Shown: one piece after another, positions 1,111 through 8,707 of the stretch
Position numbering within the stretch: the first letter of the stretch is position 1
How the letters are laid out: each line of letters starts with the position of its first letter
Virus genome (UHGV): UHGV-0140516
Origin: a virus
Length of the DNA stretch: 8,707 nucleotides
Reading direction: 5' to 3' (one strand)
Program-made: the position numbers and the translations under genes
Notes under the pieces: generated by a model
What the model was told of the DNA's origin: nothing
The model's database searches: none
The model's input: the letters and a program-made list of their open reading frames with translations, nothing else

Positions 1111-1320
1111 ATGCGCGAAATAAATGAAGATCGTGTAATCCGTGAAAAAGAATGCAGAGAGCTAACAGGCGTTTGCCGTACAACTCGTTATGAGATGGAA
1201 AAACAAGGCCGCTTTCCCTCCCGTATCAGTCTTGGAGGTCGTTCGGTTGGCTGGGTTAAGTCTGAGGTTATGGAATGGGTTAAAAGCCGGGATCGCATTA
1301 ATTCAGGAAAGGCAGCGTAA
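1111..1320 (+). CDS. alpA: AlpA-type (MerR-like HTH) prophage regulatory protein / excision-transcription regulator
   Basis: The 69-aa product MREINEDRVIREKECRELTGVCRTTRYEMEKQGRFPSRISLGGRSVGWVKSEVMEWVKSR shows the AlpA pattern (HTH, then FP-x-x-I-x-LG-x-R-SVGW-x-x-E-V-x-EW). ATG at 1111 is preceded by AGGG at 1101-1104. The track start at 1027 is GTG with AAGAGG abutting it at no spacing, so it is disfavoured. Confidence 0.75.
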   Translation: MREINEDRVIREKECRELTGVCRTTRYEMEKQGRFPSRISLGGRSVGWVKSEVMEWVKSRDRINSGKAA

Positions 1321-1710
1321 AGGGGAGCATATGACACATAAAACAAAGGCGACCGGGGGCGGTCGCCAATGGGAAAACACTAAACATAAGCCCGAACATC
1401 ATAGCGATTTGCTGGCTGGTGGGCAATGTGATCAGTGTACTGGCTTGCTGGTGGGCTATTCCTGCTCTTTAGCATCGCCATGCTGCGATGTTTTCCAGGT
1501 ATGCGATCCCATTTTTGTGCGCCTGTACTCTTTAAGGAACTTCTCAAGGACAAACGCACATGGTGCGAATCTCTCCGGTTCATGTTCGTTTACCGCATTT
1601 TTGCGTTGTTTTTTCTTGGATGAGGATAATTTCTTTAATGATTTGTCAGTCATCGTAGATACCTGTAACCCTGTGCGTCACAGTTCACCGCACCACGGCA
1701 CTGGTGATGG

Positions 1711-1890
1711 TTACTCCTGCTCTTTGGCCTTCCGGCGCTGGCGGCGTTTGATCTCGCCACGCATGGCTGTAACGATAAACTGCGCGTCTGTTTCGTTTTC
1801 CTCTTTGACCAAATTCATTTCGCTTAAAACTTCTAGAGGGATTCTAGCCGTTTTTTGTTGTGATTTGTTGTTGGTTGTACCCGTTGGCAT
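1711..1890 (-). CDS. Small Arc/Mnt-like ribbon-helix-helix DNA-binding protein (putative repressor), divergent from the replication operon
   Basis: Internal Met of the 115-aa minus ORF. ATG at 1890-1888 is preceded by a strong SD (AAGGAGG, complement of 1896-1902) at 5-6 nt spacing. The 59-aa product MPTGTTNNKSQQKTARIPLEVLSEMNLVKEENETDAQFIVTAMRGEIKRRQRRKAKEQE aligns with P22 Arc (RWPREVL / AEENGRSVNSEIYQRV versus RIPLEVL / KEENETDAQFIVTAMR). Basic C-terminal tail. Confidence 0.55.
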   Translation of the reverse strand: MPTGTTNNKSQQKTARIPLEVLSEMNLVKEENETDAQFIVTAMRGEIKRRQRRKAKEQE

Positions 1891-1951
1891 TACTGGCCTC
1901 CTTACTGTTAGGTGGCGTTCAGTATACGTAGAAAAAAAAATAAAAAAAGGC

Positions 1952-2002
1952 TTGAAGTGCAAGTCACCTAAAAGTAGCATAATCTTCAAAGGTGACTTGC
2001 AC
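1952..2002 (+). promoter_or_regulatory. Candidate sigma70 promoter for the replication operon, overlapped by a 13-bp perfect inverted repeat (putative operator)
   Basis: -35 TTGAAG at 1952-1957, 17-bp spacer, -10 TAGCAT at 1975-1980 (CATAAT at 1978-1983 as alternative). Inverted repeat GTGCAAGTCACCT at 1957-1969 and AGGTGACTTGCAC at 1990-2002 brackets the -10. On the opposite strand, a TATACT -10 (complement of 1921-1926) lies upstream of the RHH gene. Confidence 0.4.
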
Positions 2003-2083
2003 CTTAAAGACAAAGCCCCGCAAGTGTCGTTACCACTCGCAGGGCTTCTAACCACCAACGATAACGATAGTATCGAGGTAGCT

Positions 2084-2287
2084 ATGAGAAATCATACCAC
2101 ACACCCGCAAGGGCGGGACTCGCACAACCTGAATAAATACATCTGGCGTTTTATCGCCCTGAGCACGGCACAACCGCGCGTGATTACCATTGAGGCCACC
2201 AGCGAACAGGAAGCCCGCCAGCAATCCCCGGCTGGCTGCGTGATGGTATTCGCCGCCCGTATTCGTCAGGGGGTGTGCCATGCCTGA
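2084..2287 (+). CDS. Small hypothetical protein (67 aa), first gene of the replication operon; possibly of the short Icd-like family seen next to P4-type primases (unverified)
   Basis: ATG at 2084 with GAGG at 2075-2078. It is the 3' part of the long 1190..2287 track ORF, and only this part has a start and RBS. Product MRNHTTHPQGRDSHNLNKYIWRFIALSTAQPRVITIEATSEQEARQQSPAGCVMVFAARIRQGVCHA. Its stop overlaps the start of the next ORF (2280/2287). Confidence 0.5.
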   Translation: MRNHTTHPQGRDSHNLNKYIWRFIALSTAQPRVITIEATSEQEARQQSPAGCVMVFAARIRQGVCHA

Positions 2288-2606: not shown

Positions 2607-2906
2607 ATGAGAACATATTTATCTGGCTTGACTGCCAGCGGTTATGCACACCCCAAAATTATCCCCGGCGCTATTTATCTGGATAAGAACGGTAACAGAG
2701 TAACGGTAAAAGAACTGATGTTTGACCGTGTGTATTTTATTCGTGATGGATATTCATTTCATAGTTCGCTGAACGTGGAGATCTTTATTAGCAGATTCAG
2801 GCGGGAAATCCCGCTTTCCGGAAATAACCATGTGTCATGTCTGGATGTTGATAAAAAACTACAGGAACTGAAAAACATGATTGCCGCGTGGAGAGAGCAG
2901 AAATGA
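2607..2906 (+). CDS. Hypothetical protein (99 aa), unknown function
   Basis: Starts 7 nt after the upstream stop. Its TGA (2904-2906) overlaps the primase ATG (2903-2905) in an ATGA arrangement. No recognisable motif. Confidence 0.5.
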   Translation: MRTYLSGLTASGYAHPKIIPGAIYLDKNGNRVTVKELMFDRVYFIRDGYSFHSSLNVEIFISRFRREIPLSGNNHVSCLDVDKKLQELKNMIAAWREQK

Positions 2907-4720
2907 AAAAAGCGCCAAATTTAAAACACCAGCCGCGTGACAAAATGACGGAAGTCATCATTTTTGCGGGTAGTAATGCGTGGGCACATGCGAAGCAGTG
3001 GCAGGAACAGGACGGGCGACTGGCTGGCGATAACGTGCCTCCTGTCTGGCTTGGAGAGCAACAACTTGCCGAACTGGACAACCTGCAAATCGTACCGGAC
3101 GGACGCTATCGCGTGCGTCTCTATCAGGCGGGGTTATTGCGTCCGGGGCTTGTTAATACCATCGGGCAGAAACTGGCAGTGGCAGGTGTCAGGGATGCTG
3201 ATTATTACCCTGAAGGAATGCACAGCCAGAAACGGGAGAACTGGCGCGAATATCTGGAACGTGAACGGGCAGAGCAGGCGGAAAAGAAAAAGGTAGTTGA
3301 ACTGCCTGTAAAGAAAAAAGAGCGGGTAAAAGACGATAACGCTTCATCACTGGCGCTTAACCAGATGGGAGCAAGTCAACGCGGCGAAGTTCTCCTGGCA
3401 CATTATGGCGGTGAACTGGCGATTCATGCTGACTCTGACACTGTTCACCATTACAACGGCGTTGTATGGGAGCCAGTACAGGATAAAGAATTACAGCGAG
3501 CTATGGCACAGATTTTCATTGATGCGGAGATCAGCTATTCGCAGAACGCCATTAAATCGGCGGTCGATACCATGAAGTTAAGTTTGCCTGTAATGGGGAA
3601 TACAGCCCGTAACCTGATTGGATTCAGTAACGGGGTATTTGATACCAGAACAGGTAATTTTCGGGAGCATAACAAAAACGACTGGTTGTTAATTGCCAGT
3701 GAATTACCTTTCAGCCCACCAGCAGAGGGGGAAACGCTGGCAACACATGCGCCGAATTTCTGGAAGTGGTTACGCCGTTCGGTGGCTGAGAATGACCGCA
3801 AGGCGGATCGCGTACTGGCTGCATTATTCATGGTGCTGGCGAACCGGTACGACTGGCAGTTATTCATTGAGGTAACAGGTCCAGGGGGAAGTGGTAAAAG
3901 CGTGATGGCGGAGATTTGCACCATGCTGGCGGGTAAGGCCAACACAGTATCGGCAAGCATGAAGGCGCTGGAAGATGCAAGGGAACGCGCGTTAGTGGTT
4001 GGCTTTTCGCTGATTATCATGCCGGATATGACCCGCTACGCTGGTGATGGGGCAGGGATTAAGGCTATTACAGGCGGTGACAAGGTGGCAATTGACCCGA
4101 AACACAAAGCCCCCTACTCAACGCGTATTCCGGCAGTAGTGCTGGCGGTTAACAATAACGCCATGTCATTCAGTGACCGCAGCGGGGGGATCTCACGTCG
4201 TCGGGTGATATTCAATTTTTCGGAAGTTGTACCGGAGAACGAACGCGATCCAATGCTGGCGGAAAAAATAGAAGGTGAGCTGGCGGTAGTGATTCGCCAT
4301 CTGCTTACACGGTTTGCTGACCAGGACGAAGCCAGACGCCTGTTATATGAGCAGCAGAAATCTGAAGAAGCACTGGCGATAAAGCGAGAGGGGGATTCGC
4401 TGGTGGACTTCTGCGGCTATCTCATGGCGTCGGTAATGTGTGATGGCCTGTTAGTGGGTAATGCTGAAATTGTGCCATTCAGCCCACGCAGGTATCTCTA
4501 TCATGCCTATCTGGCTTATATGAGGGCACATGGGTTTGGTAAACCTGTAACACTGACGCGCTTCGGTAAAGATATGCCGGGGGCAATGGCGGAATATGGC
4601 AGGGAGTATATGAAACGGAAAACGAAGCACGGTTTTTGTTCAAACGTGACACTGACGGAGGAATCAGAAGACTGGATGCCATCATGTGTATCGGTCACTA
4701 ATGACGATAGTAAAAATTAA
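2903..4720 (+). CDS. P4-alpha-like primase/helicase replication protein (D5-type NTPase)
   Basis: 605-aa ORF. ATG at 2903 is preceded by GGAGAGAG at 2890-2897; the track start at 2888 is GTG. Walker A GPGGSGKS is encoded at 3878-3901, in frame. Followed immediately by the cognate-type iteron array. Large and well anchored. Confidence 0.85.
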   Translation: MKKAPNLKHQPRDKMTEVIIFAGSNAWAHAKQWQEQDGRLAGDNVPPVWLGEQQLAELDNLQIVPDGRYRVRLYQAGLLRPGLVNTIGQKLAVAGVRDADYYPEGMHSQKRENWREYLERERAEQAEKKKVVELPVKKKERVKDDNASSLALNQMGASQRGEVLLAHYGGELAIHADSDTVHHYNGVVWEPVQDKELQRAMAQIFIDAEISYSQNAIKSAVDTMKLSLPVMGNTARNLIGFSNGVFDTRTGNFREHNKNDWLLIASELPFSPPAEGETLATHAPNFWKWLRRSVAENDRKADRVLAALFMVLANRYDWQLFIEVTGPGGSGKSVMAEICTMLAGKANTVSASMKALEDARERALVVGFSLIIMPDMTRYAGDGAGIKAITGGDKVAIDPKHKAPYSTRIPAVVLAVNNNAMSFSDRSGGISRRRVIFNFSEVVPENERDPMLAEKIEGELAVVIRHLLTRFADQDEARRLLYEQQKSEEALAIKREGDSLVDFCGYLMASVMCDGLLVGNAEIVPFSPRRYLYHAYLAYMRAHGFGKPVTLTRFGKDMPGAMAEYGREYMKRKTKHGFCSNVTLTEESEDWMPSCVSVTNDDSKN

Positions 4721-5007: not shown

Positions 5008-5253
5008 ATGACAGCGAAGCACACAAAAAAATCACAATCGCACGCCCTTGATTTGACGGAACACTGGTTAAGGGTGTCGATAAAAATCATCGACCGCAAC
5101 GCCGGGGAAGGATATGCGAAAGCACATCCCGAACTGATTAGCGCATTCATGACAACGGCAGCTGCAAACTTTGCCACGCTGACAGAACGGGAGATTGCCG
5201 AAGCGGAACAGGTGACAACCATCAACGTTAAAACCGGAGAGCAGACAGCATGA
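5008..5253 (+). CDS. Hypothetical protein (81 aa), translationally coupled to the SSB-like gene
   Basis: ORF starts just downstream of the iteron array. Its TGA (5251-5253) overlaps the ATG (5250-5252) of the next gene. No recognisable motif; weak RBS. Confidence 0.45.
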   Translation: MTAKHTKKSQSHALDLTEHWLRVSIKIIDRNAGEGYAKAHPELISAFMTTAAANFATLTEREIAEAEQVTTINVKTGEQTA

Positions 5254-5672
5254 CAGCACAGATAGCGGCTTACGGGCGGCTGGTGGCTGACCCGCAGTTA
5301 AAGACCACCAGCAAGGGTACACAAATGACGATGGCTAGTATGGCGGTCCCCCTTCCGTGCAGCCAGGCAGATGACGGAACGGCGACGATGTGGTTATCCG
5401 TCCTGGCGTTTGGCAGACAGGCCGACGCACTGGCAAAACACCACAAAGGCGAACTGGTGAGCGTGGCGGGTAACATGCAGGTAAGCCAGTGGACAGGCCA
5501 GAACGGCGAAACGCGGCAGGGCTGGCAGGTTATCGCAGACAGCGTAATCAGTGCGAGAACGGCGCGACCGGGCGGCAAAAAAGGCCAGCAAGGGCAGGCT
5601 ACTGACGCACTGAACAGGGCAAAACAACAGGCGGGTAACGATGATCCGTACGGGGATAACATACCGTTTTAA
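5250..5672 (+). CDS. ssb: Single-stranded DNA-binding protein family (short SSB-like OB-fold protein with C-terminal DNIPF tip)
   Basis: Aligns by eye to E. coli SSB across the OB fold (G-x-L-x-x-DP; W-x-x-V-x-x-FG-x-x-A; KG-x-x-V-x-x-x-G-x-x-x-x-x-x-WT-x-Q-x-G-x-x-R). Ends in DDPYGDNIPF, resembling the SSB DDDIPF partner-binding tip. Shorter than host SSB (140 versus about 178 aa). Confidence 0.7.
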   Translation: MTAQIAAYGRLVADPQLKTTSKGTQMTMASMAVPLPCSQADDGTATMWLSVLAFGRQADALAKHHKGELVSVAGNMQVSQWTGQNGETRQGWQVIADSVISARTARPGGKKGQQGQATDALNRAKQQAGNDDPYGDNIPF

Positions 5673-5686
5673 GCAACGAGTAACAG

Positions 5687-5710
5687 AAGCCGGAGAAGTC
5701 CGGCTTTTTT
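5687..5710 (+). terminator. Rho-independent terminator after the SSB-like gene
   Basis: Stem AGCCGGA (5688-5694), loop GAAG, stem TCCGGCT (5699-5705), then a T6 run ending at 5710. Confidence 0.7.
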
Positions 5711-5720
5711 ATGCCCCAAA

Positions 5721-5758
5721 AAAAGCCCGATAAGGTCAGAGGGTCTTATCGGGCTTTT
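5721..5758. terminator. Second hairpin with A-run and T-run flanks (possible bidirectional terminator)
   Basis: AAAAGCCCGATAAG (5721-5734), a 10-nt loop, then CTTATCGGGCTTTT (5745-5758). Confidence 0.5.
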
Positions 5759-5838: not shown

Positions 5839-5899
5839 ATTGCGTAAAATGAAATCATGATTATAATCACAACTGGATGAACATCCAGTTGTGATTTTT
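5839..5899 (+). promoter_or_regulatory. Candidate promoter of the head-gene operon followed immediately by a 15-bp perfect palindrome and T-run (operator or attenuator hairpin)
   Basis: -35 TTGCGT at 5839-5844, 16-bp spacer, -10 TATAAT at 5861-5866. Perfect inverted repeat AATCACAACTGGATG (5864-5878) and CATCCAGTTGTGATT (5882-5896) with a 3-nt spacer, followed by a T5 run (5895-5899). It sits between the promoter and the RBS of the first head-module ORF. Confidence 0.4.
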
Positions 5900-5923
5900 A
5901 ACGTCAAAGAGGAATTTCCGACT

Positions 5924-6130
5924 ATGGCAGAAGAGAAAAAAGGCGGGGTGACAGTTTACATAAGCCCAGACATCGTGGAGGCGCTCAAGGAACGCCACCA
6001 GCAGAACGTAAAAGCAGGCATTGCGGCAGGACTTGAGCCGCTGGCGATGGTTGAGCCGTCAACAGGCTGGCAGGTACGCGCCTATTTACGCGCGGCGCTG
6101 GGCATGAATCAGACTCATGGGGGTGAATAA
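5924..6130 (+). CDS. Hypothetical protein (68 aa), first ORF of the head module
   Basis: ATG at 5924 with AAAGAGGAA at 5906-5914. The track start at 5891 is GTG inside the palindrome, so it is disfavoured. The stop TAA overlaps the capsid-gene ATG (TAATG at 6128-6132). Confidence 0.5.
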   Translation: MAEEKKGGVTVYISPDIVEALKERHQQNVKAGIAAGLEPLAMVEPSTGWQVRAYLRAALGMNQTHGGE

Positions 6131-7185
6131 TGACAGGCAAAGCAACGGCACTTAACACTAACCAGCTTTTCGCGTACCTGAATCGTGGGGATATTTCGGA
6201 ATTTAAATTCAGTCCGCTGTTTACGTCGCTGTTTTTCCCGAACGTGGCAACCTTCAACACGCAGGACATCATGTTAGATACCCTGGATATTGAAGAAGTC
6301 ACCATGTCGGCTTTTTGTTCGCCTATGGTGGGGAGTCAGGTTCAGCGCGATAAAGGGTACGAAACAAGCACTATCCGCCCTGGCTACATGAAACCAAAAC
6401 ACGAAATCGATCCATCAAAAACCATCATGCGCATGGCTGGAGAAGATCCGGCACAGCTTAACGATCCAACTTATCGCCGTATGCGCCTGATTACTGGCAA
6501 CATGCGCCGCCAGGTAAACGCTATTAAAGCTCGCATAGAATGGCTGGCGGTGAATGCGGTCACGACCGGAAAAAACATCATTGAGGGCGAAGGAATAAAT
6601 AGATACGAAATCGATTGGAAAATCCCGACTAAAAACATCATTACGCAGGGATCGGGCAAAAAGTGGTCTGAGGCAGATAAGGAAACACACGATCCAATCT
6701 ATGACATCGAACTATACACCGATCAGGCTGGTTGCCCCGCCAACGTCATGATTATGGGCGCTGAGGTATGGCGCACGTTACGCAGCTTTAAAAAATTCCG
6801 TGAACTGTACGATCTTTCCCGTGGTTCAGAATCCGCCGCAGAGCTGGCCTGTAAAAACCTGGGCGAAGTAGTGAGCTTTAAAGGCTATCTGGGTGATCTG
6901 GCCCTTATCGTCTATTCCGGCAAATACACCGACAGCGATGGCACCGAAAAATATTTCCTTGAGCCTGATTTGCTTGTCCTGGGCAACACTAACAATAAAG
7001 GGCTGGTGGCCTATGGTGCGATTATGGATCCGGAAGCGGTAAGAACTGGCGCAACGCAAAACATGTACTACCCGAAAAACTGGATTGAGGATGGCGATCC
7101 GGCGATTGAGTACGTGCAGACGCACAGCGCACCGCAGCCGGTACCGGCAGATATTCGCAAATTTGTTACCGTCAAAATTGCTTAA
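6130..7185 (+). CDS. Major capsid protein, lambda gpE family
   Basis: 351-aa product aligns to lambda gpE over its whole length by eye: KFxPLF...LFF near the N-terminus, PGY(V/M)KPKHE, DP-x-x-L-x-DP-x-YRR-x-R-x-I-x-x-NMR, SYKG / SFKG, VVYSG / IVYSG, LGNT, YPKNW and a C-terminal GDPA. Similar length (351 versus 341 aa). Confidence 0.9.
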   Translation: MTGKATALNTNQLFAYLNRGDISEFKFSPLFTSLFFPNVATFNTQDIMLDTLDIEEVTMSAFCSPMVGSQVQRDKGYETSTIRPGYMKPKHEIDPSKTIMRMAGEDPAQLNDPTYRRMRLITGNMRRQVNAIKARIEWLAVNAVTTGKNIIEGEGINRYEIDWKIPTKNIITQGSGKKWSEADKETHDPIYDIELYTDQAGCPANVMIMGAEVWRTLRSFKKFRELYDLSRGSESAAELACKNLGEVVSFKGYLGDLALIVYSGKYTDSDGTEKYFLEPDLLVLGNTNNKGLVAYGAIMDPEAVRTGATQNMYYPKNWIEDGDPAIEYVQTHSAPQPVPADIRKFVTVKIA

Positions 7186-7196
7186 CGGGGGATTCT

Positions 7197-7532
7197 ATGA
7201 ACACTCCATACATTGAGTTATTTGCAGGCAGTCAGCAGGTATCCACGACGCTGGTACATTTTGCCGCTGATGCTGGAGTTATTCAGGAATTTACCCCGCT
7301 GATGCTGGCGGACAATGGCGAGTTTAAGCCGTGGGATGGTCAGGAATCTGGCAAGGCTGTTTATCTGACCTCGTACCCCGTTGACACGTCGACGCAGAAA
7401 TCAGCACAGTGCTATAAGACGGGGATATTTAATATCGCCGCCGTTAACTGGCCTGAGAGCGTCGACACCGATGCGAAAAAATGCGCCGCCTTTGCGGGTT
7501 CTGGCGTATCCGTTCAGCCACTGGCCCGATAA
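7197..7532 (+). CDS. Head decoration protein, lambda gpD family
   Basis: 111-aa product shares with lambda gpD the motifs TPLML, WDG, YK(S/T)G-x-F, WPE and KK-x-x-AFAG. Near-identical length (111 versus 110 aa). RBS GGGGGA upstream. Confidence 0.8.
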   Translation: MNTPYIELFAGSQQVSTTLVHFAADAGVIQEFTPLMLADNGEFKPWDGQESGKAVYLTSYPVDTSTQKSAQCYKTGIFNIAAVNWPESVDTDAKKCAAFAGSGVSVQPLAR

Positions 7533-7544
7533 GCAGAGGGAACG

Positions 7545-7958
7545 ATGGCAACGAATGAAAGTATCATGACGCTACCGCTGGCGAGTAAATTTAAGGCCGA
7601 AGCGCGGGCAATGGCTGACAGAGGTTTATCAACCTACGAGGCCGTATATCAACTTAACAGCCTGGAAGAGAAGGACAAGCCGCGCTCTGATGCGATTATG
7701 GCGCTTGATGAATCTGGCGACTATCAGCCGCTGTTACGTGCAATGGCAAACGTGCCTTGTATCGATGTTGGTACGGCTAAAAGCATCCTTAGCATGACCA
7801 TAGAGCAGGAACGCCAGAAGGTTGCACCAGAGCTTACCGCAGCCTTTGAAAACTTTATGGACATGCACAGCCCGAAAGCCGTATCAGCTGGTATGGCATA
7901 CGCTGGCAGAAACCCGGGCGATGATGGCGACATCGATCGCATACTGAAAACCATCTGA
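7545..7958 (+). CDS. Hypothetical protein (137 aa) between the decoration gene and cos; function unknown
   Basis: Good RBS (AGAGGGAA 5 nt upstream of the ATG). Followed by a strong terminator. No similarity to lambda FI, FII or W that I can see. Confidence 0.6.
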   Translation: MATNESIMTLPLASKFKAEARAMADRGLSTYEAVYQLNSLEEKDKPRSDAIMALDESGDYQPLLRAMANVPCIDVGTAKSILSMTIEQERQKVAPELTAAFENFMDMHSPKAVSAGMAYAGRNPGDDGDIDRILKTI

Positions 7959-7962
7959 GACA

Positions 7963-7987
7963 AGGCCGGAGAAATCCGGCTTTTTTT
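7963..7987 (+). terminator. Rho-independent terminator ending the head-gene operon
   Basis: Stem GGCCGGA (7964-7970), loop GAAA, stem TCCGGC (7975-7980), then a T7 run (7981-7987). Near-duplicate of the terminator at 5687-5710. Confidence 0.75.
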
Positions 7988-8160
7988 ACGGGTCCTTTCC
8001 GGCATATGAACCCGTTACGGGGCGGCGACCTCGCGGTTTTTCGCTATTTATGAGCTTTTTCAGGGTGGTGGTGGTGGTTTTGTTGTTTGCTCTATCTCCA
8101 TGAATAAAAAGGGAAAGATAACACCAACACACCAACCTGAAACCTTGACCAAGTTGGGAT
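7988..8160 (+). other. cos: Lambda-type cos site: cosQ-like element, cosN with a 12-nt cohesive-end sequence identical to lambda, and a divergent cosB-like region
   Basis: ACGGGTCCTTTCCGG (7988-8002) matches the lambda right-end cosQ region. GTTACG then GGGCGGCGACCT (8020-8031) is the lambda cohesive-end sequence. CGCGGTTTTTCGCTATTTATGA (8032-8053) matches lambda left-end bases 13-35 with about one substitution. Downstream (8054-8160) differs from lambda cosB and contains GGTGGTGGTGGTGG (8065-8078) and the oppositely oriented CACCAACACACCAACC (8123-8138). Confidence 0.85.
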
Positions 8161-8164
8161 ATTG

Positions 8165-8707
8165 ATGAAATCGCACCTGATGAACAAAAAAACCATGGCG
8201 CAAAGCTGCCGGGTAAGTGCTACAGCATTCGACAAGTGGGGAGTGACTCCCGTTGAACGTAAAGGCCGTGAGGCGTTTTATGATGTTGCCAGCGTGATAG
8301 ACAATAGGGTTAACAATGCAATTAGCCAGCTTACAAACGACAAAGGCGAGATTGATGATGATGAACTCTTACGAGTCAGGATCAGATTACTGACAGCACA
8401 GGCGGAGGCGCAGGAACTTAAAAACGAGCGCGATCGCGGTGACGTGATTGATACAGAGTTTTGCATGTACGCCCTTTCAAAACTGGCGAGTCAGATTTCA
8501 TCAATCATGGACAGCCTCCCGCTTACTATGCAAAGGAGCTTCCCACAGATGACCCCCGTCATGCTGGATGGCCTGAAAAAAGAAGTTGTCAGAGCCTGTA
8601 ACGCATGCACAAAACTTGATGAAAACATCCCGCGAATGCTGTCCGATTATCTGATGGAAACTACCGGAAATGTGCCTGATAAGTTTCAGCCGGATAAAGA
8701 CAAGTAA
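8165..8707 (+). CDS. Terminase small subunit, lambda Nu1 family
   Basis: Lambda Nu1 LTRAQADAQELKNARDSAEVVETAFCTFVLSRIAGEIASILDGLPLSVQRRFPE...LDELIPGLLSEY aligns with LTAQAEAQELKNERDRGDVIDTEFCMYALSKLASQISSIMDSLPLTMQRSFPQ...LDENIPRMLSDY. The N-terminal NKK...wHTH region is more divergent. First ATG is at 8165; the track start at 8162 is TTG; the ATG at 8180 matches the Nu1 N-terminus better. Position just downstream of cos, as in lambda. Confidence 0.85.
   Translation: MKSHLMNKKTMAQSCRVSATAFDKWGVTPVERKGREAFYDVASVIDNRVNNAISQLTNDKGEIDDDELLRVRIRLLTAQAEAQELKNERDRGDVIDTEFCMYALSKLASQISSIMDSLPLTMQRSFPQMTPVMLDGLKKEVVRACNACTKLDENIPRMLSDYLMETTGNVPDKFQPDKDK

Follow-up and report, generated by a model that had tools for sequence, protein, structure and literature searches.

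A lambda-type coat and decoration gene module in an Escherichia coli PICI of the EcCICFT073 family

The persistence, in most Gram-negative PICIs, of a coat gene that seems dispensable is a recognized puzzle. It bears on the UHGV virus genome UHGV-0140516, which harbors a gpE-like and a gpD-like gene in tandem. To the original prediction, this pair suggested a satellite able to build capsids sized for its own small genome. Here, we place the two genes in their operon, island, and protein families, and weigh what they may do; "the window" denotes the whole 8707-nucleotide stretch that was analyzed.

The island and its capsid operon

The window represents a classical Gram-negative PICI, a phage satellite of E. 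coli that belongs to the EcCICFT073 family. The window ORFs and their Pfam matches reveal a co-oriented int, alpA, and primase-replication module in an island of ≈10 to 11 kb that lacks lysis and tail genes, and the gene string int, alpA, DUF4222, primase, SSB, 68-residue ORF, E, D, 137-residue ORF, and cos is common to the window and EcCICFT073. A near-identical copy of the island in strain A33 ends ≈550 bp past terS, beside tRNA-Ile. Genes for a portal, a protease, a large terminase, or head–tail connectors are found neither in the window nor downstream in A33, Nissle, and CFT073; the A33 copy also lacks head-completion genes, and the island is unable to make a capsid alone. The gene set that marks a cf-PICI, i.e., portal, protease, head–tail connectors, and large terminase besides the coat, is likewise not that of the window island. 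Scanning the window with Rfam, for tRNAs, and with PADLOC returned no matches. Helper-dependent induction and high-frequency transfer have been experimentally shown for EcCICFT073 only. The TerS-type islands IHE3034 and 18098, tested in 2018, transferred poorly or not at all.

The 68-residue ORF, E, D, and the 137-residue protein are encoded in one operon spanning ≈5860 to 7990, which is closed by a terminator and followed by cos and a Nu1-type terS (Table 1). The original prediction had described a tight operon at 6130 to 7532, bounded by a promoter/palindrome and a strong terminator. Both elements exist, the palindrome at 5865 to 5896, but these bounds are too narrow, as the operon includes the 68-residue ORF before E and the 137-residue ORF after D, and the terminator follows the latter. 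It is identical in CFT073 and Nissle, and folding reveals no hairpin directly after D. The E–D gap is 11 nt and contains a GGGGGA ribosome-binding site; the gap from D to the 137-residue ORF is 12 nt.

Table 1. Features of the capsid operon and its flanks, numbered from the first nucleotide of the window
Feature	Position	Strand	Evidence
Two consecutive terminator-like hairpins after the SSB gene	5688..5758	+	ΔG −15.3 (z −4.7) and −23.1 (z −6.4), each followed by a U-run
Candidate promoter and palindrome	5840..5896	+	TTGCGT, 16 nt, TATAAT at 5862–5867
68-residue ORF, phrog_3255 (unknown function)	5924..6130	+	PHROG 1.2e-42; TAATG overlap with the E start, translational coupling
Major capsid protein E, lambda gpE family, 351 residues	6130..7185	+	PF03864 Phage_cap_E 3.3e-52; phrog_29 5e-110
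Head decoration protein D, lambda gpD/phage 21 SHP family, 111 residues	7197..7532	+	PF02924 HDPD 3.4e-18; phrog_49 1.2e-27
137-residue protein, c1501 ortholog (95% identity)	7545..7958	+	phrog_1999 6.7e-62; phrog_53 C terminus 1.3e-8
Intrinsic terminator closing the capsid operon	7964..7987	+	GCCGGA-GAAA-UCCGGC, then U7; ΔG −15.3, z −3.9
cos site	8016..8053	+	exact lambda cosN GGGCGGCGACCT at 8020–8031
terS, Nu1-type small terminase subunit	8165..8707	+	PF07471 9.8e-23; phrog_57 6e-52

Upstream, the paired hairpins after the SSB gene are kept in Nissle and CFT073 and set the capsid operon apart from the replication zone. The palindrome, which overlaps the TATAAT element, consists of two perfectly paired 15-nt arms (5865–5879 and 5882–5896; 100% complementary) and has a CTG-N10-CAG core; as a hairpin, it folds with a ΔG of −19.6 and a z-score of −6.9, and it may function as an operator or an attenuator hairpin. 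Pairing is preserved in CFT073 by a compensatory change (C>T in the left arm and G>A in the right arm); the cq9 lineage has not retained the palindrome. A consensus scanner did not call the candidate promoter because the −35 element TTGCGT matches at only three of six positions; as this scanner also missed obvious hairpin terminators, folding was used instead.

On the other side, the E–D pair lies upstream of cos, as the original prediction had it, at ≈490 bp from a lambda-type cosN. The flank of this site is identical to the lambda left end (lambda bases 1–34) save one base, with the cosB region diverging, and the site, a helper-type cos, occupies the position equivalent to that of EcCICFT073 cos1. 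The last gene encodes a TerS of 181 residues that aligns over its full length with lambda Nu1 at 37% identity. We also considered this gene as an Rpp, defined by similarity to RppA, RppB, or RppC (about 144–153 residues), and rejected the assignment given the full-length Nu1 homology and the lack of any match to RppC PDB chains even at E ≤ 10.

The head proteins and their lineage

Both structural homologs are full length, as originally claimed (351 and 111 residues versus 341 and 110 in lambda), with Pfam, PHROG, and PDB matches. E scores 178 bits against PF03864 (cut-off 22.9) over profile positions 14 to 328 of 329, and aligns with 342 residues of lambda gpE at 43% identity, with six gap positions. 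It is the ortholog of EcCICFT073 c1499 (94% amino acid identity), whose crystal structure, 3BQW, is matched in sequence at 5.6e-228; the cryo-EM structure of lambda gpE, 7VI9, is matched at 2e-82. The lambda gpE family, in which sequence places the island E, has an HK97-type fold; E is a putative former of an icosahedral shell. The original prediction called for a comparison of E-loop and P-domain lengths with gpE; this reveals no length change in the core domains, and the differences are eight extra residues in the N-arm and two single-residue indels. D scores 66.3 bits against PF02924 (cut-off 29.1), has a length in keeping with gpD (110 residues) and SHP (114–115 residues), and matches phage 21 SHP (PDB 1TD0) at 5.8e-14 and lambda gpD at 6e-14, with 33 to 37% identity to the latter. 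It is the ortholog of EcCICFT073 c1500 (96% amino acid identity) and is predicted to sit as a trimer on the three-fold sites of an expanded gpE-type shell.

Homology links the 137-residue protein to the C-terminal domain of Nu3/gpC, the lambda scaffold; a scaffold activity of the island protein is putative. The profile matches are reciprocal: the island protein matches phrog_53 at positions 494 to 568 of 583 (1.3e-8), and lambda Nu3 residues 117 to 200 match phrog_1999 (2.7e-26). BLASTP aligns it with Nu3 residues 111 to 199 at E = 0.025. It carries the C-terminal domain of Nu3 only (137 versus 201 residues). HMMER against 1.84 billion representative proteins retrieved only nine relatives, one of them Nu3-like and thus a link to the scaffold family. 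An identity with lambda FI was rejected for want of similarity, and of the two PGAP labels, "head-tail connector" and hypothetical, the former is unsupported, with no NCBIfam, Pfam, or PDB match. A single-sequence AF2 model (pLDDT 42) is unusable. The 68-residue ORF precedes E in the CFT073, Nissle, cq9, Salmonella, and Edwardsiella islands; its ribbon-helix-helix hints are all subthreshold, AF2 returns two helices at a pLDDT of 64, and an assignment as lambda W, also 68 residues, was rejected as no alignment was found.

E and D are under strong purifying selection, with dN/dS values of 0.10 to 0.12 (E) and 0.10 to 0.11 (D) at dS of 0.13 to 0.37. Of 5426 complete E. coli genomes, 598 match the four-gene module (68-residue ORF, E, D, and 137-residue ORF) across at least 80% of its span, with identity reaching ≥90% in nearly every case. 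Salmonella, Edwardsiella, Lelliottia, Serratia, and Cedecea also harbor full-length homologs, without exception in an int-alpA-primase-E-D context, and the order E then D is kept across the Escherichia, Salmonella, Edwardsiella, and Serratia islands. This order was correctly read in the original prediction as opposite to that of lambda; it is opposite also to that of phage 21 and Gifsy-1. Across 50,697 phage records, identity to the best match reaches 47% (E) and 45% (D), and the alignment reveals PICI-specific conserved motifs. In an Edwardsiella island embedded in its helper, E and D are 47% and 41% identical to the helper copies, no closer than to those of any other phage, and this E is 62% identical to the window E. 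By these comparisons, E and D form an old satellite-specific lineage rather than a recent capture.

What the module may do

E, D, and the island that carries them were already known, as was the absence of a phenotype; all were published in 2018 (PMC6092414). In that study (Fillol-Salom et al. 2018, ISME J), Δc1499 and Δc1500 islands transferred like the parent and lambda interference was not relieved; the deletions were of single genes only, and the helpers were lambda, phi80, and CFT073 prophage 4 (PMC6092414). The absence of a transfer defect on deletion, an outcome named in the original prediction as evidence against it, is thus already on record for EcCICFT073, by single rather than double deletions. 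Transfer of c1499::cat reached 1e5 to 1e6 per ml, and only phage-sized EcCICFT073 DNA was packaged with the lambda helper (PMC6092414). Transfer rose about 100-fold with a size-neutral marker, a gain that fits the packaging of multimers between cos sites in full-size heads. When the genes after ori were expressed from pBAD, c1503 alone blocked lambda (PMC6739421). We considered whether the markers themselves (c1501::tetA and c1499::cat) had disrupted the module and so caused the lack of phenotype, and rejected this from the mapping of the Table S6 primers: tetA sits just past the c1501 stop codon, and the module is therefore intact in the parent island. Literature searches found no later functional work on PICI gpE/gpD homologs.

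Our best guess is that these shell components are functional but redundant with those of the helper, "redundant" being an argument from the absence of phenotype. As a full explanation with a mechanism, we tentatively favor, at somewhat short of an even chance, a conserved "late-zone" head module in which E, D, and the 137-residue protein would act after helper induction as a cognate shell-building set. The island proteins would assemble alone or mixed with helper gpE and gpD on the helper portal, protease, and scaffold, a co-assembly that is putative at 43 to 47% identity to helper gpE. The resulting heads would have normal lambda (T = 7) geometry, because there are no core-domain indels relative to gpE and EcCICFT073 DNA packaged with lambda is phage-sized; helper TerL, steered by island TerS to the island cos, would then fill them with island concatemers of approximately four genome lengths. 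The selective value would lie in an extra or helper-independent supply of shell, the module being neither a size-redirection device nor a self-sufficient capsid system. It would be redundant in laboratory crosses because lambda-type helpers supply the same functions, which would explain the published lack of phenotype. Counting against a shell set are the poor or absent transfer of the TerS-type islands tested in 2018 and the fact that the 137-residue gene is not universal; an AlpA/excisionase-like HTH gene occupies its slot in the helper-embedded PICI (HE-PICI) and Serratia islands.

It is unlikely that the coat, cement, and short scaffold-like protein instead build smaller-T satellite capsids that exclude the helper genome, as an alternative to Sid/CpmB redirection. 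This proposal draws on the presence of cognate E and D on the island together with a truncated Nu3-like protein, in analogy with SaPI1 CpmB, which shares the capsid-binding C terminus of the helper scaffold. Small capsids are made by PmCI172, a PICI of Pasteurella that encodes a capsid homolog (PMC6092414). However, the 94 to 96% identical EcCICFT073 module, intact in the parent, is associated with phage-sized DNA and can lose c1499 or c1500 without effect, the coat core retains the domain lengths of gpE, and transfer responds ≈100-fold to a size-neutral marker. With an island that is also incapable of forming a capsid alone, the satellite-sized capsid of the original prediction is not supported, and judged from the literature on the ortholog with lambda as helper and from the coat-core length, the module does not behave as a size-redirection system of the Sid, CpmAB, Ccm, or TcaP type. 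We give a similarly small chance to a related reading in which coat, cement, and truncated scaffold would form a satellite-specific shell kit, possibly of different size, on a portal stolen from the natural helper. If true, such islands would mark an evolutionary stage between classical PICIs, whose theft extends to whole heads, and cf-PICIs, which take tails alone, and the published negatives would reflect helper choice and single-gene deletions.

A back-up role, in which island E and D replace interrupted, defective, or repressed helper copies (as with an HE-PICI inserted in helper E, or in mobilization by cryptic prophages), is rather doubtful. In its favor, helper E is the most frequent insertion point of HE-PICIs, which carry their own E (PMC10111431; L006), no late gene is more common among Gram-negative PICIs than that for the capsid (21 of 29 reference islands), and the genes are under purifying selection; against this, islands of the window's type insert at chromosomal sites and not in helper genes, the HE-PICI of L009 lies in the portal gene rather than E and still carries E and D, a fit of proteins only 47% identical to those of the helper with its portal and scaffold is putative, and the authors of PMC10111431 regard the redundancy as not essential. 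Interference, with a divergent coat and cement poisoning the head assembly of nonhelper lambdoid phages or titrating capsid-sensing host defenses, would find precedent in the SaPIbov5 capsid homolog Ccm, which interferes with its helper (cited in PMC6092414), and in the divergence of the PICI lineage from all phage E proteins. We consider it quite improbable, however, since pBAD expression of the post-ori genes, rppA excepted, left lambda plating unreduced, the deletions did not relieve interference, PADLOC gave no matches, and it is not obvious why a poison would require that a cognate D, together with a scaffold domain, be conserved alongside E. Finally, ten years of work on EcCICFT073 without a phenotype might suggest a nonfunctional relic of the phage ancestry of PICIs, but a dN/dS of ≈0.1, frames intact in hundreds of genomes and several genera, and synteny kept across lineages only 55 to 68% identical make this very improbable indeed.

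As a discovery, the locus adds little, as the genes are published and one of the proteins has a crystal structure. What is sharpened is the question of why the coat gene is kept: it belongs to an old, satellite-specific lineage under strong purifying selection, it is always found as a cognate E–D pair in a fixed, nonphage order, the pair of a helper-embedded island is no nearer to its helper than to other phages, and in the EcCICFT073 family, the pair is cotranscribed with a Nu3-type scaffold domain formerly annotated as hypothetical or "connector."

Comparison with known systems

The closest relative is EcCICFT073 itself, in which orthologs c1499, c1500, and c1501 lie in the same order and cos occupies the same position after the same terminator. 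The two islands differ in that EcCICFT073 harbors rppA where the window island has a full-length Nu1-type terS, and in a PerC-like gene between ssb and the capsid operon of CFT073 that the window lacks. The lambda Nu3/D/E region shares with the island the same protein families and lengths, a cosN and right flank identical save one base, and a Nu1-like terS, whereas identity is only 43% (E), 33 to 37% (D), and 37 to 41% (Nu1). Furthermore, the lambda order Nu3-D-E contrasts with E-D-Nu3C on the island, which retains only the C-terminal domain of Nu3, has its module upstream of cos, and lacks portal, protease, W, FI, FII, and TerL.

Among satellites, the cf-PICI EcCIEDL933 resembles the window island in its int-alpA-primase left arm and in encoding its own head proteins, but has a full head and packaging set (an HK97-type coat without decoration protein, protease, portal, connectors, HNH, TerS, and TerL) and makes small capsids; the window island has only coat, cement, scaffold domain, and TerS. 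SaPIbov5 Ccm, SaPI1 CpmB, and P4 Sid and Psu offer parallels as a satellite-encoded capsid homolog (Ccm), scaffold mimic (CpmB), and decoration protein (Psu), yet these modify the size or shape of the capsid and interfere with their helper, neither of which the E. coli orthologs do with lambda. Finally, the helper-embedded PICIs (11capE; PMC10111431), exemplified by L006 and L009, share the same E–D late zone but reside inside helper late genes, encode an E that is 56 to 62% identical to the window E, and have an excisionase-like HTH gene in the slot of the 137-residue protein.

The island and its gpE- and gpD-type genes

We analyzed the window by ORF mapping and domain searches, which reveal a single string of co-oriented genes (see table). 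Domain searches place a gpE-like capsid gene (E) and a gpD-like decoration gene (D) where the original prediction had put them, far beyond chance, and both are full length (351 residues versus 341 in gpE and 111 versus 110 in gpD). The proteins belong to the gpE and gpD families, and the element belongs among the classical PICIs of the EcCICFT073 type. The same island is found in annotated copies of strains A33, Nissle 1917, and CFT073, the last of which is EcCICFT073, the model Gram-negative PICI. The E, D, and 137-aa proteins share 94, 96, and 95% identity with those of c1499, c1500, and c1501, listed in the supplement of the 2018 study as a 351-aa "capsid," a 111-aa head decoration protein, and a 137-aa protein (PMC6092414); the c1499 protein corresponds to PDB 3BQW, titled "putative capsid protein of prophage." The two genes are already known, since Fillol-Salom et al. 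described them in 2018, naming c1499 a putative capsid protein and c1500 a head decoration protein (PMC6092414).

Features of the window
Feature	Coordinates	Assignment
Tyrosine integrase, C-terminal part	49-693	
AlpA regulator	1027-1320	
DUF4222 protein	2607-2906	
D5/P4-alpha-type primase	2888-4720	
Small ORF	5008-5253	
SSB	5250-5672	
Perfect 15-nt inverted repeat	5865-5896	
68-aa ORF	5924-6130	phrog_3255
351-aa protein (E)	6130-7185	Pfam Phage_cap_E, E=3.3e-52
111-aa protein (D)	7197-7532	lambda head decoration family HDPD, E=3.4e-18
137-aa ORF	7545-7958	phrog_1999
Terminator	7964-7987	
cosN	8020-8031	exact lambda match
Small terminase, 180/181 aa	8162/8165-8707	Nu1-type

The 2.9-kb right arm of the island has matches in 1408 of the 5426 complete E. 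coli genomes searched, and the four-gene module running from the 68-aa to the 137-aa ORF, counted where the match covers ≥80% of the module length, is present in 598 of the 5426, nearly all at ≥90% identity. In A33, the island ends ≈550 bp past terS, adjoining a tRNA-Ile gene. Two PICIs of the EcCICFT073 family stand in tandem beside the tRNA-Ile gene in this strain (L001 1-12535, NZ_CP028742.1), the upstream one closing with D, 137-aa, and terS genes of its own directly before the window-type island. Frameshifts are flagged in many genes of this assembly, but the window-type island has intact E, D, and terS. Window positions 1320-2280, from alpA to the next conserved ORF, contain no credible coding sequence (a 365-aa ORF at 1190-2287 looks spurious), and Rfam at the gathering threshold detects no C4/isrK-type immunity RNA there; related islands harbor Icd-like, HicB-like, and small HTH genes in the matching slot.

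Operon structure and neighboring genes

As predicted, the E-then-D order is the reverse of that in lambda and the pair lies upstream of cos; phage 21 and Gifsy-1 share the lambda order (C/Nu3-D-E). The cosN, GGGCGGCGACCT, and its right flank reproduce lambda bases 1-34 bar one base, with divergence beginning in the cosB region. E and D are separated by 11 nt containing a ribosome-binding site, and the transcription unit is wider than the predicted 6130-7532: the start codon of E lies within the end of the 68-aa ORF (TAATG), and 12 nt separate D from the 137-aa ORF. Folding reveals no hairpin after D and places the terminator further downstream; two more terminator hairpins follow ssb, ahead of the palindrome. 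The predicted promoter/palindrome boundary corresponds to an inverted repeat (arms AATCACAACTGGATG/CATCCAGTTGTGATT, CTG-N10-CAG core) that overlaps a TATAAT shortly ahead of the 68-aa ORF (window 5840-5930). This palindrome is kept in CFT073 via a compensatory change and is absent in cq9, another PICI lineage. It may serve as an operator, bound by a LexA-like protein or by the 68-aa protein itself, or may form an attenuator hairpin. The 68-aa ORF is conserved, stands ahead of E in most PICI lineages examined, and is translationally coupled to the coat gene via the TAATG overlap. It gives only sub-threshold ribbon-helix-helix hints and a mediocre structure model; a role as autoregulator is a conjecture based on where it lies, immediately behind the palindrome.

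The 137-aa protein belongs to a family of unknown function (phrog_1999) and matches the C-terminal end of phrog_53, "head maturation protease" (494-568 of 583, E=1.3e-8). In the reverse search, lambda Nu3 residues 117-200 match phrog_1999 at 2.7e-26, a 195-aa Nu3-like protein from an exhaustive HMMER search matches both families, and direct BLASTP aligns residues 36-136 of the 137-aa protein with Nu3 residues 111-199. Judged by these profile and BLASTP matches, the 137-aa protein is a stand-alone homologue of the lambda Nu3/gpC C-terminal domain, common to the Nu3 scaffold and the gpC protease. We found no paper describing this Nu3-domain identity; c1501 is annotated as hypothetical or "head-tail connector," and the name "phage head-tail connector protein" occasionally given by PGAP to the 137-aa ORF is without support. 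The gene is kept in the cq9 lineage, and helper-embedded PICIs (HE-PICIs) and Serratia islands carry an excisionase/AlpA-like gene in its slot.

Lineage and selection

Among 50,697 phage records, the best matches reach 47% identity for E (in Gifsy-1, phage 21, and lambda-like phages) and 45% for D. The E proteins of other PICI lineages are closer than phage E: identity is 68% in Salmonella, 63% in the E. coli island L005, which has a RepA-type replicase, 62% in Edwardsiella, 56% in L006, a helper-embedded island, and 55-58% in Lelliottia, Serratia, and Cedecea. In the alignment, some E segments are strongly conserved from one PICI lineage to the next and differ from lambda, e.g., IEWLAVNA-TTGKNIIEGEGI and, near the C terminus, GDPAIEYVQTHSAPQPVP, and every context examined has int, alpA, and replication genes, then E, then D. 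An Edwardsiella tarda contig (MBLV01000009.1; L009 8001-13626) carries an HE-PICI inserted in the helper portal gene, which places satellite E-D and helper D-E 3 kb apart. Since the satellite and helper copies are so divergent (only 47% identical in E and 41% in D), E-D appears to be an old, vertically maintained satellite lineage, and these comparisons indicate that the pair is not a recent capture from the current helper. By Nei–Gojobori estimation of the window against CFT073 or Nissle, dN/dS is 0.10-0.12 for E, at a dS of 0.33-0.37, and 0.10-0.11 for D, a clear signature of purifying selection. A 463-aa protein on a 3.2-kb Logan contig (P0098) joins Phage_cap_E and HDPD in one ORF as an HE-PICI-type E-D fusion; its length is exactly what the loss of a single base from the E stop codon would give, so either a sequencing error or a rare fusion that occurs naturally may underlie it.

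Capsid size, proposed role, and related systems

In pairwise and multiple alignments, E differs from gpE by eight additional N-terminal-arm residues and two single-residue indels. A comparison of E-loop and P-domain lengths finds no further difference across 340 residues, and the primary structure gives no hint that the capsomer geometry differs. This agrees with the published packaging data, in which the DNA packaged with lambda as helper was all phage-sized (PMC6092414). In that study, c1499 and c1500 were tested precisely in view of Ccm, a SaPIbov5 capsid homologue that redirects capsid size; deletion of either did not restore lambda plating and left transfer by the resident helper prophage parent-like at ≈2-9 x 10^3 per ml, a cat-for-c1499 island transferred at 10^5-10^6 per ml, and the authors report no phenotype for c1499 (PMC6092414). 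Marker artefacts can be rejected as the source of these negative results: primer mapping puts the tetA cassette right after the c1501 stop codon and ahead of the terminator, which leaves the module intact in the parent island. For the orthologue, deletion therefore causes essentially no transfer defect, as seen with single rather than double deletions. A 2019 review describes a capsid homologue in EcCICFT073 and packaging into normal-size capsids (PMC6893505). Our literature searches found no later functional work on PICI gpE/gpD homologue genes.

Satellite-sized capsids, as originally predicted, are contradicted by these experiments on the orthologue, and their formation with the native helper is distinctly unlikely; on present evidence, the element is not a size-redirection system. 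We tentatively favor a reading in which E, D, and the 137-aa protein are working shell components, a function that we infer from an intact, selected, and cognate set (coat, cement, and scaffold domain) forming one unit beside cos-terS in an island without portal, protease, connectors, or large terminase. Using the portal, protease, and scaffold of the helper, these proteins would form heads of the normal T=7 type, with or without helper subunits mixed in; in laboratory crosses, lambda-type helpers would make them redundant. In a 2023 study, a capsid gene was counted in 21 of 29 reference Gram-negative PICIs, and helper-embedded PICIs were described that insert in the helper E gene yet carry their own E (PMC10111431); a back-up copy for helpers with interrupted or defective E/D is nonetheless unlikely. 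Interference with, or a decoy against, non-helper phages is improbable; when each gene downstream of ori was expressed from a plasmid in 2019, only c1503 (RppA) blocked lambda (PMC6739421). We give next to no credence to a relic, a reading contradicted by the purifying selection, which argues against decay. The residual interest lies in the conservation of a capsid module that looks dispensable, a question made more concrete and testable by a lineage specific to satellites, an E-D order that is fixed, and the presence of a Nu3-domain neighbor.

The element is not a capsid-forming PICI, because the portal, protease, connector, and TerL genes that define this class are all absent. Its last gene, considered as an Rpp, has no similarity to RppC structures and is instead, as in the Nissle copy, a Nu1 homologue of full length, the window's protein sharing 37% identity with that of lambda; that some E. 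coli PICIs encode TerS was noted already in 2018 (PMC6092414). Packaging specificity probably comes from the island TerS, not from Rpp-mediated redirection of the helper TerS. The sole module-level difference from EcCICFT073 lies here: after cos, EcCICFT073 encodes the 144-aa RppA (c1503), whereas the window's island encodes a Nu1-type TerS.
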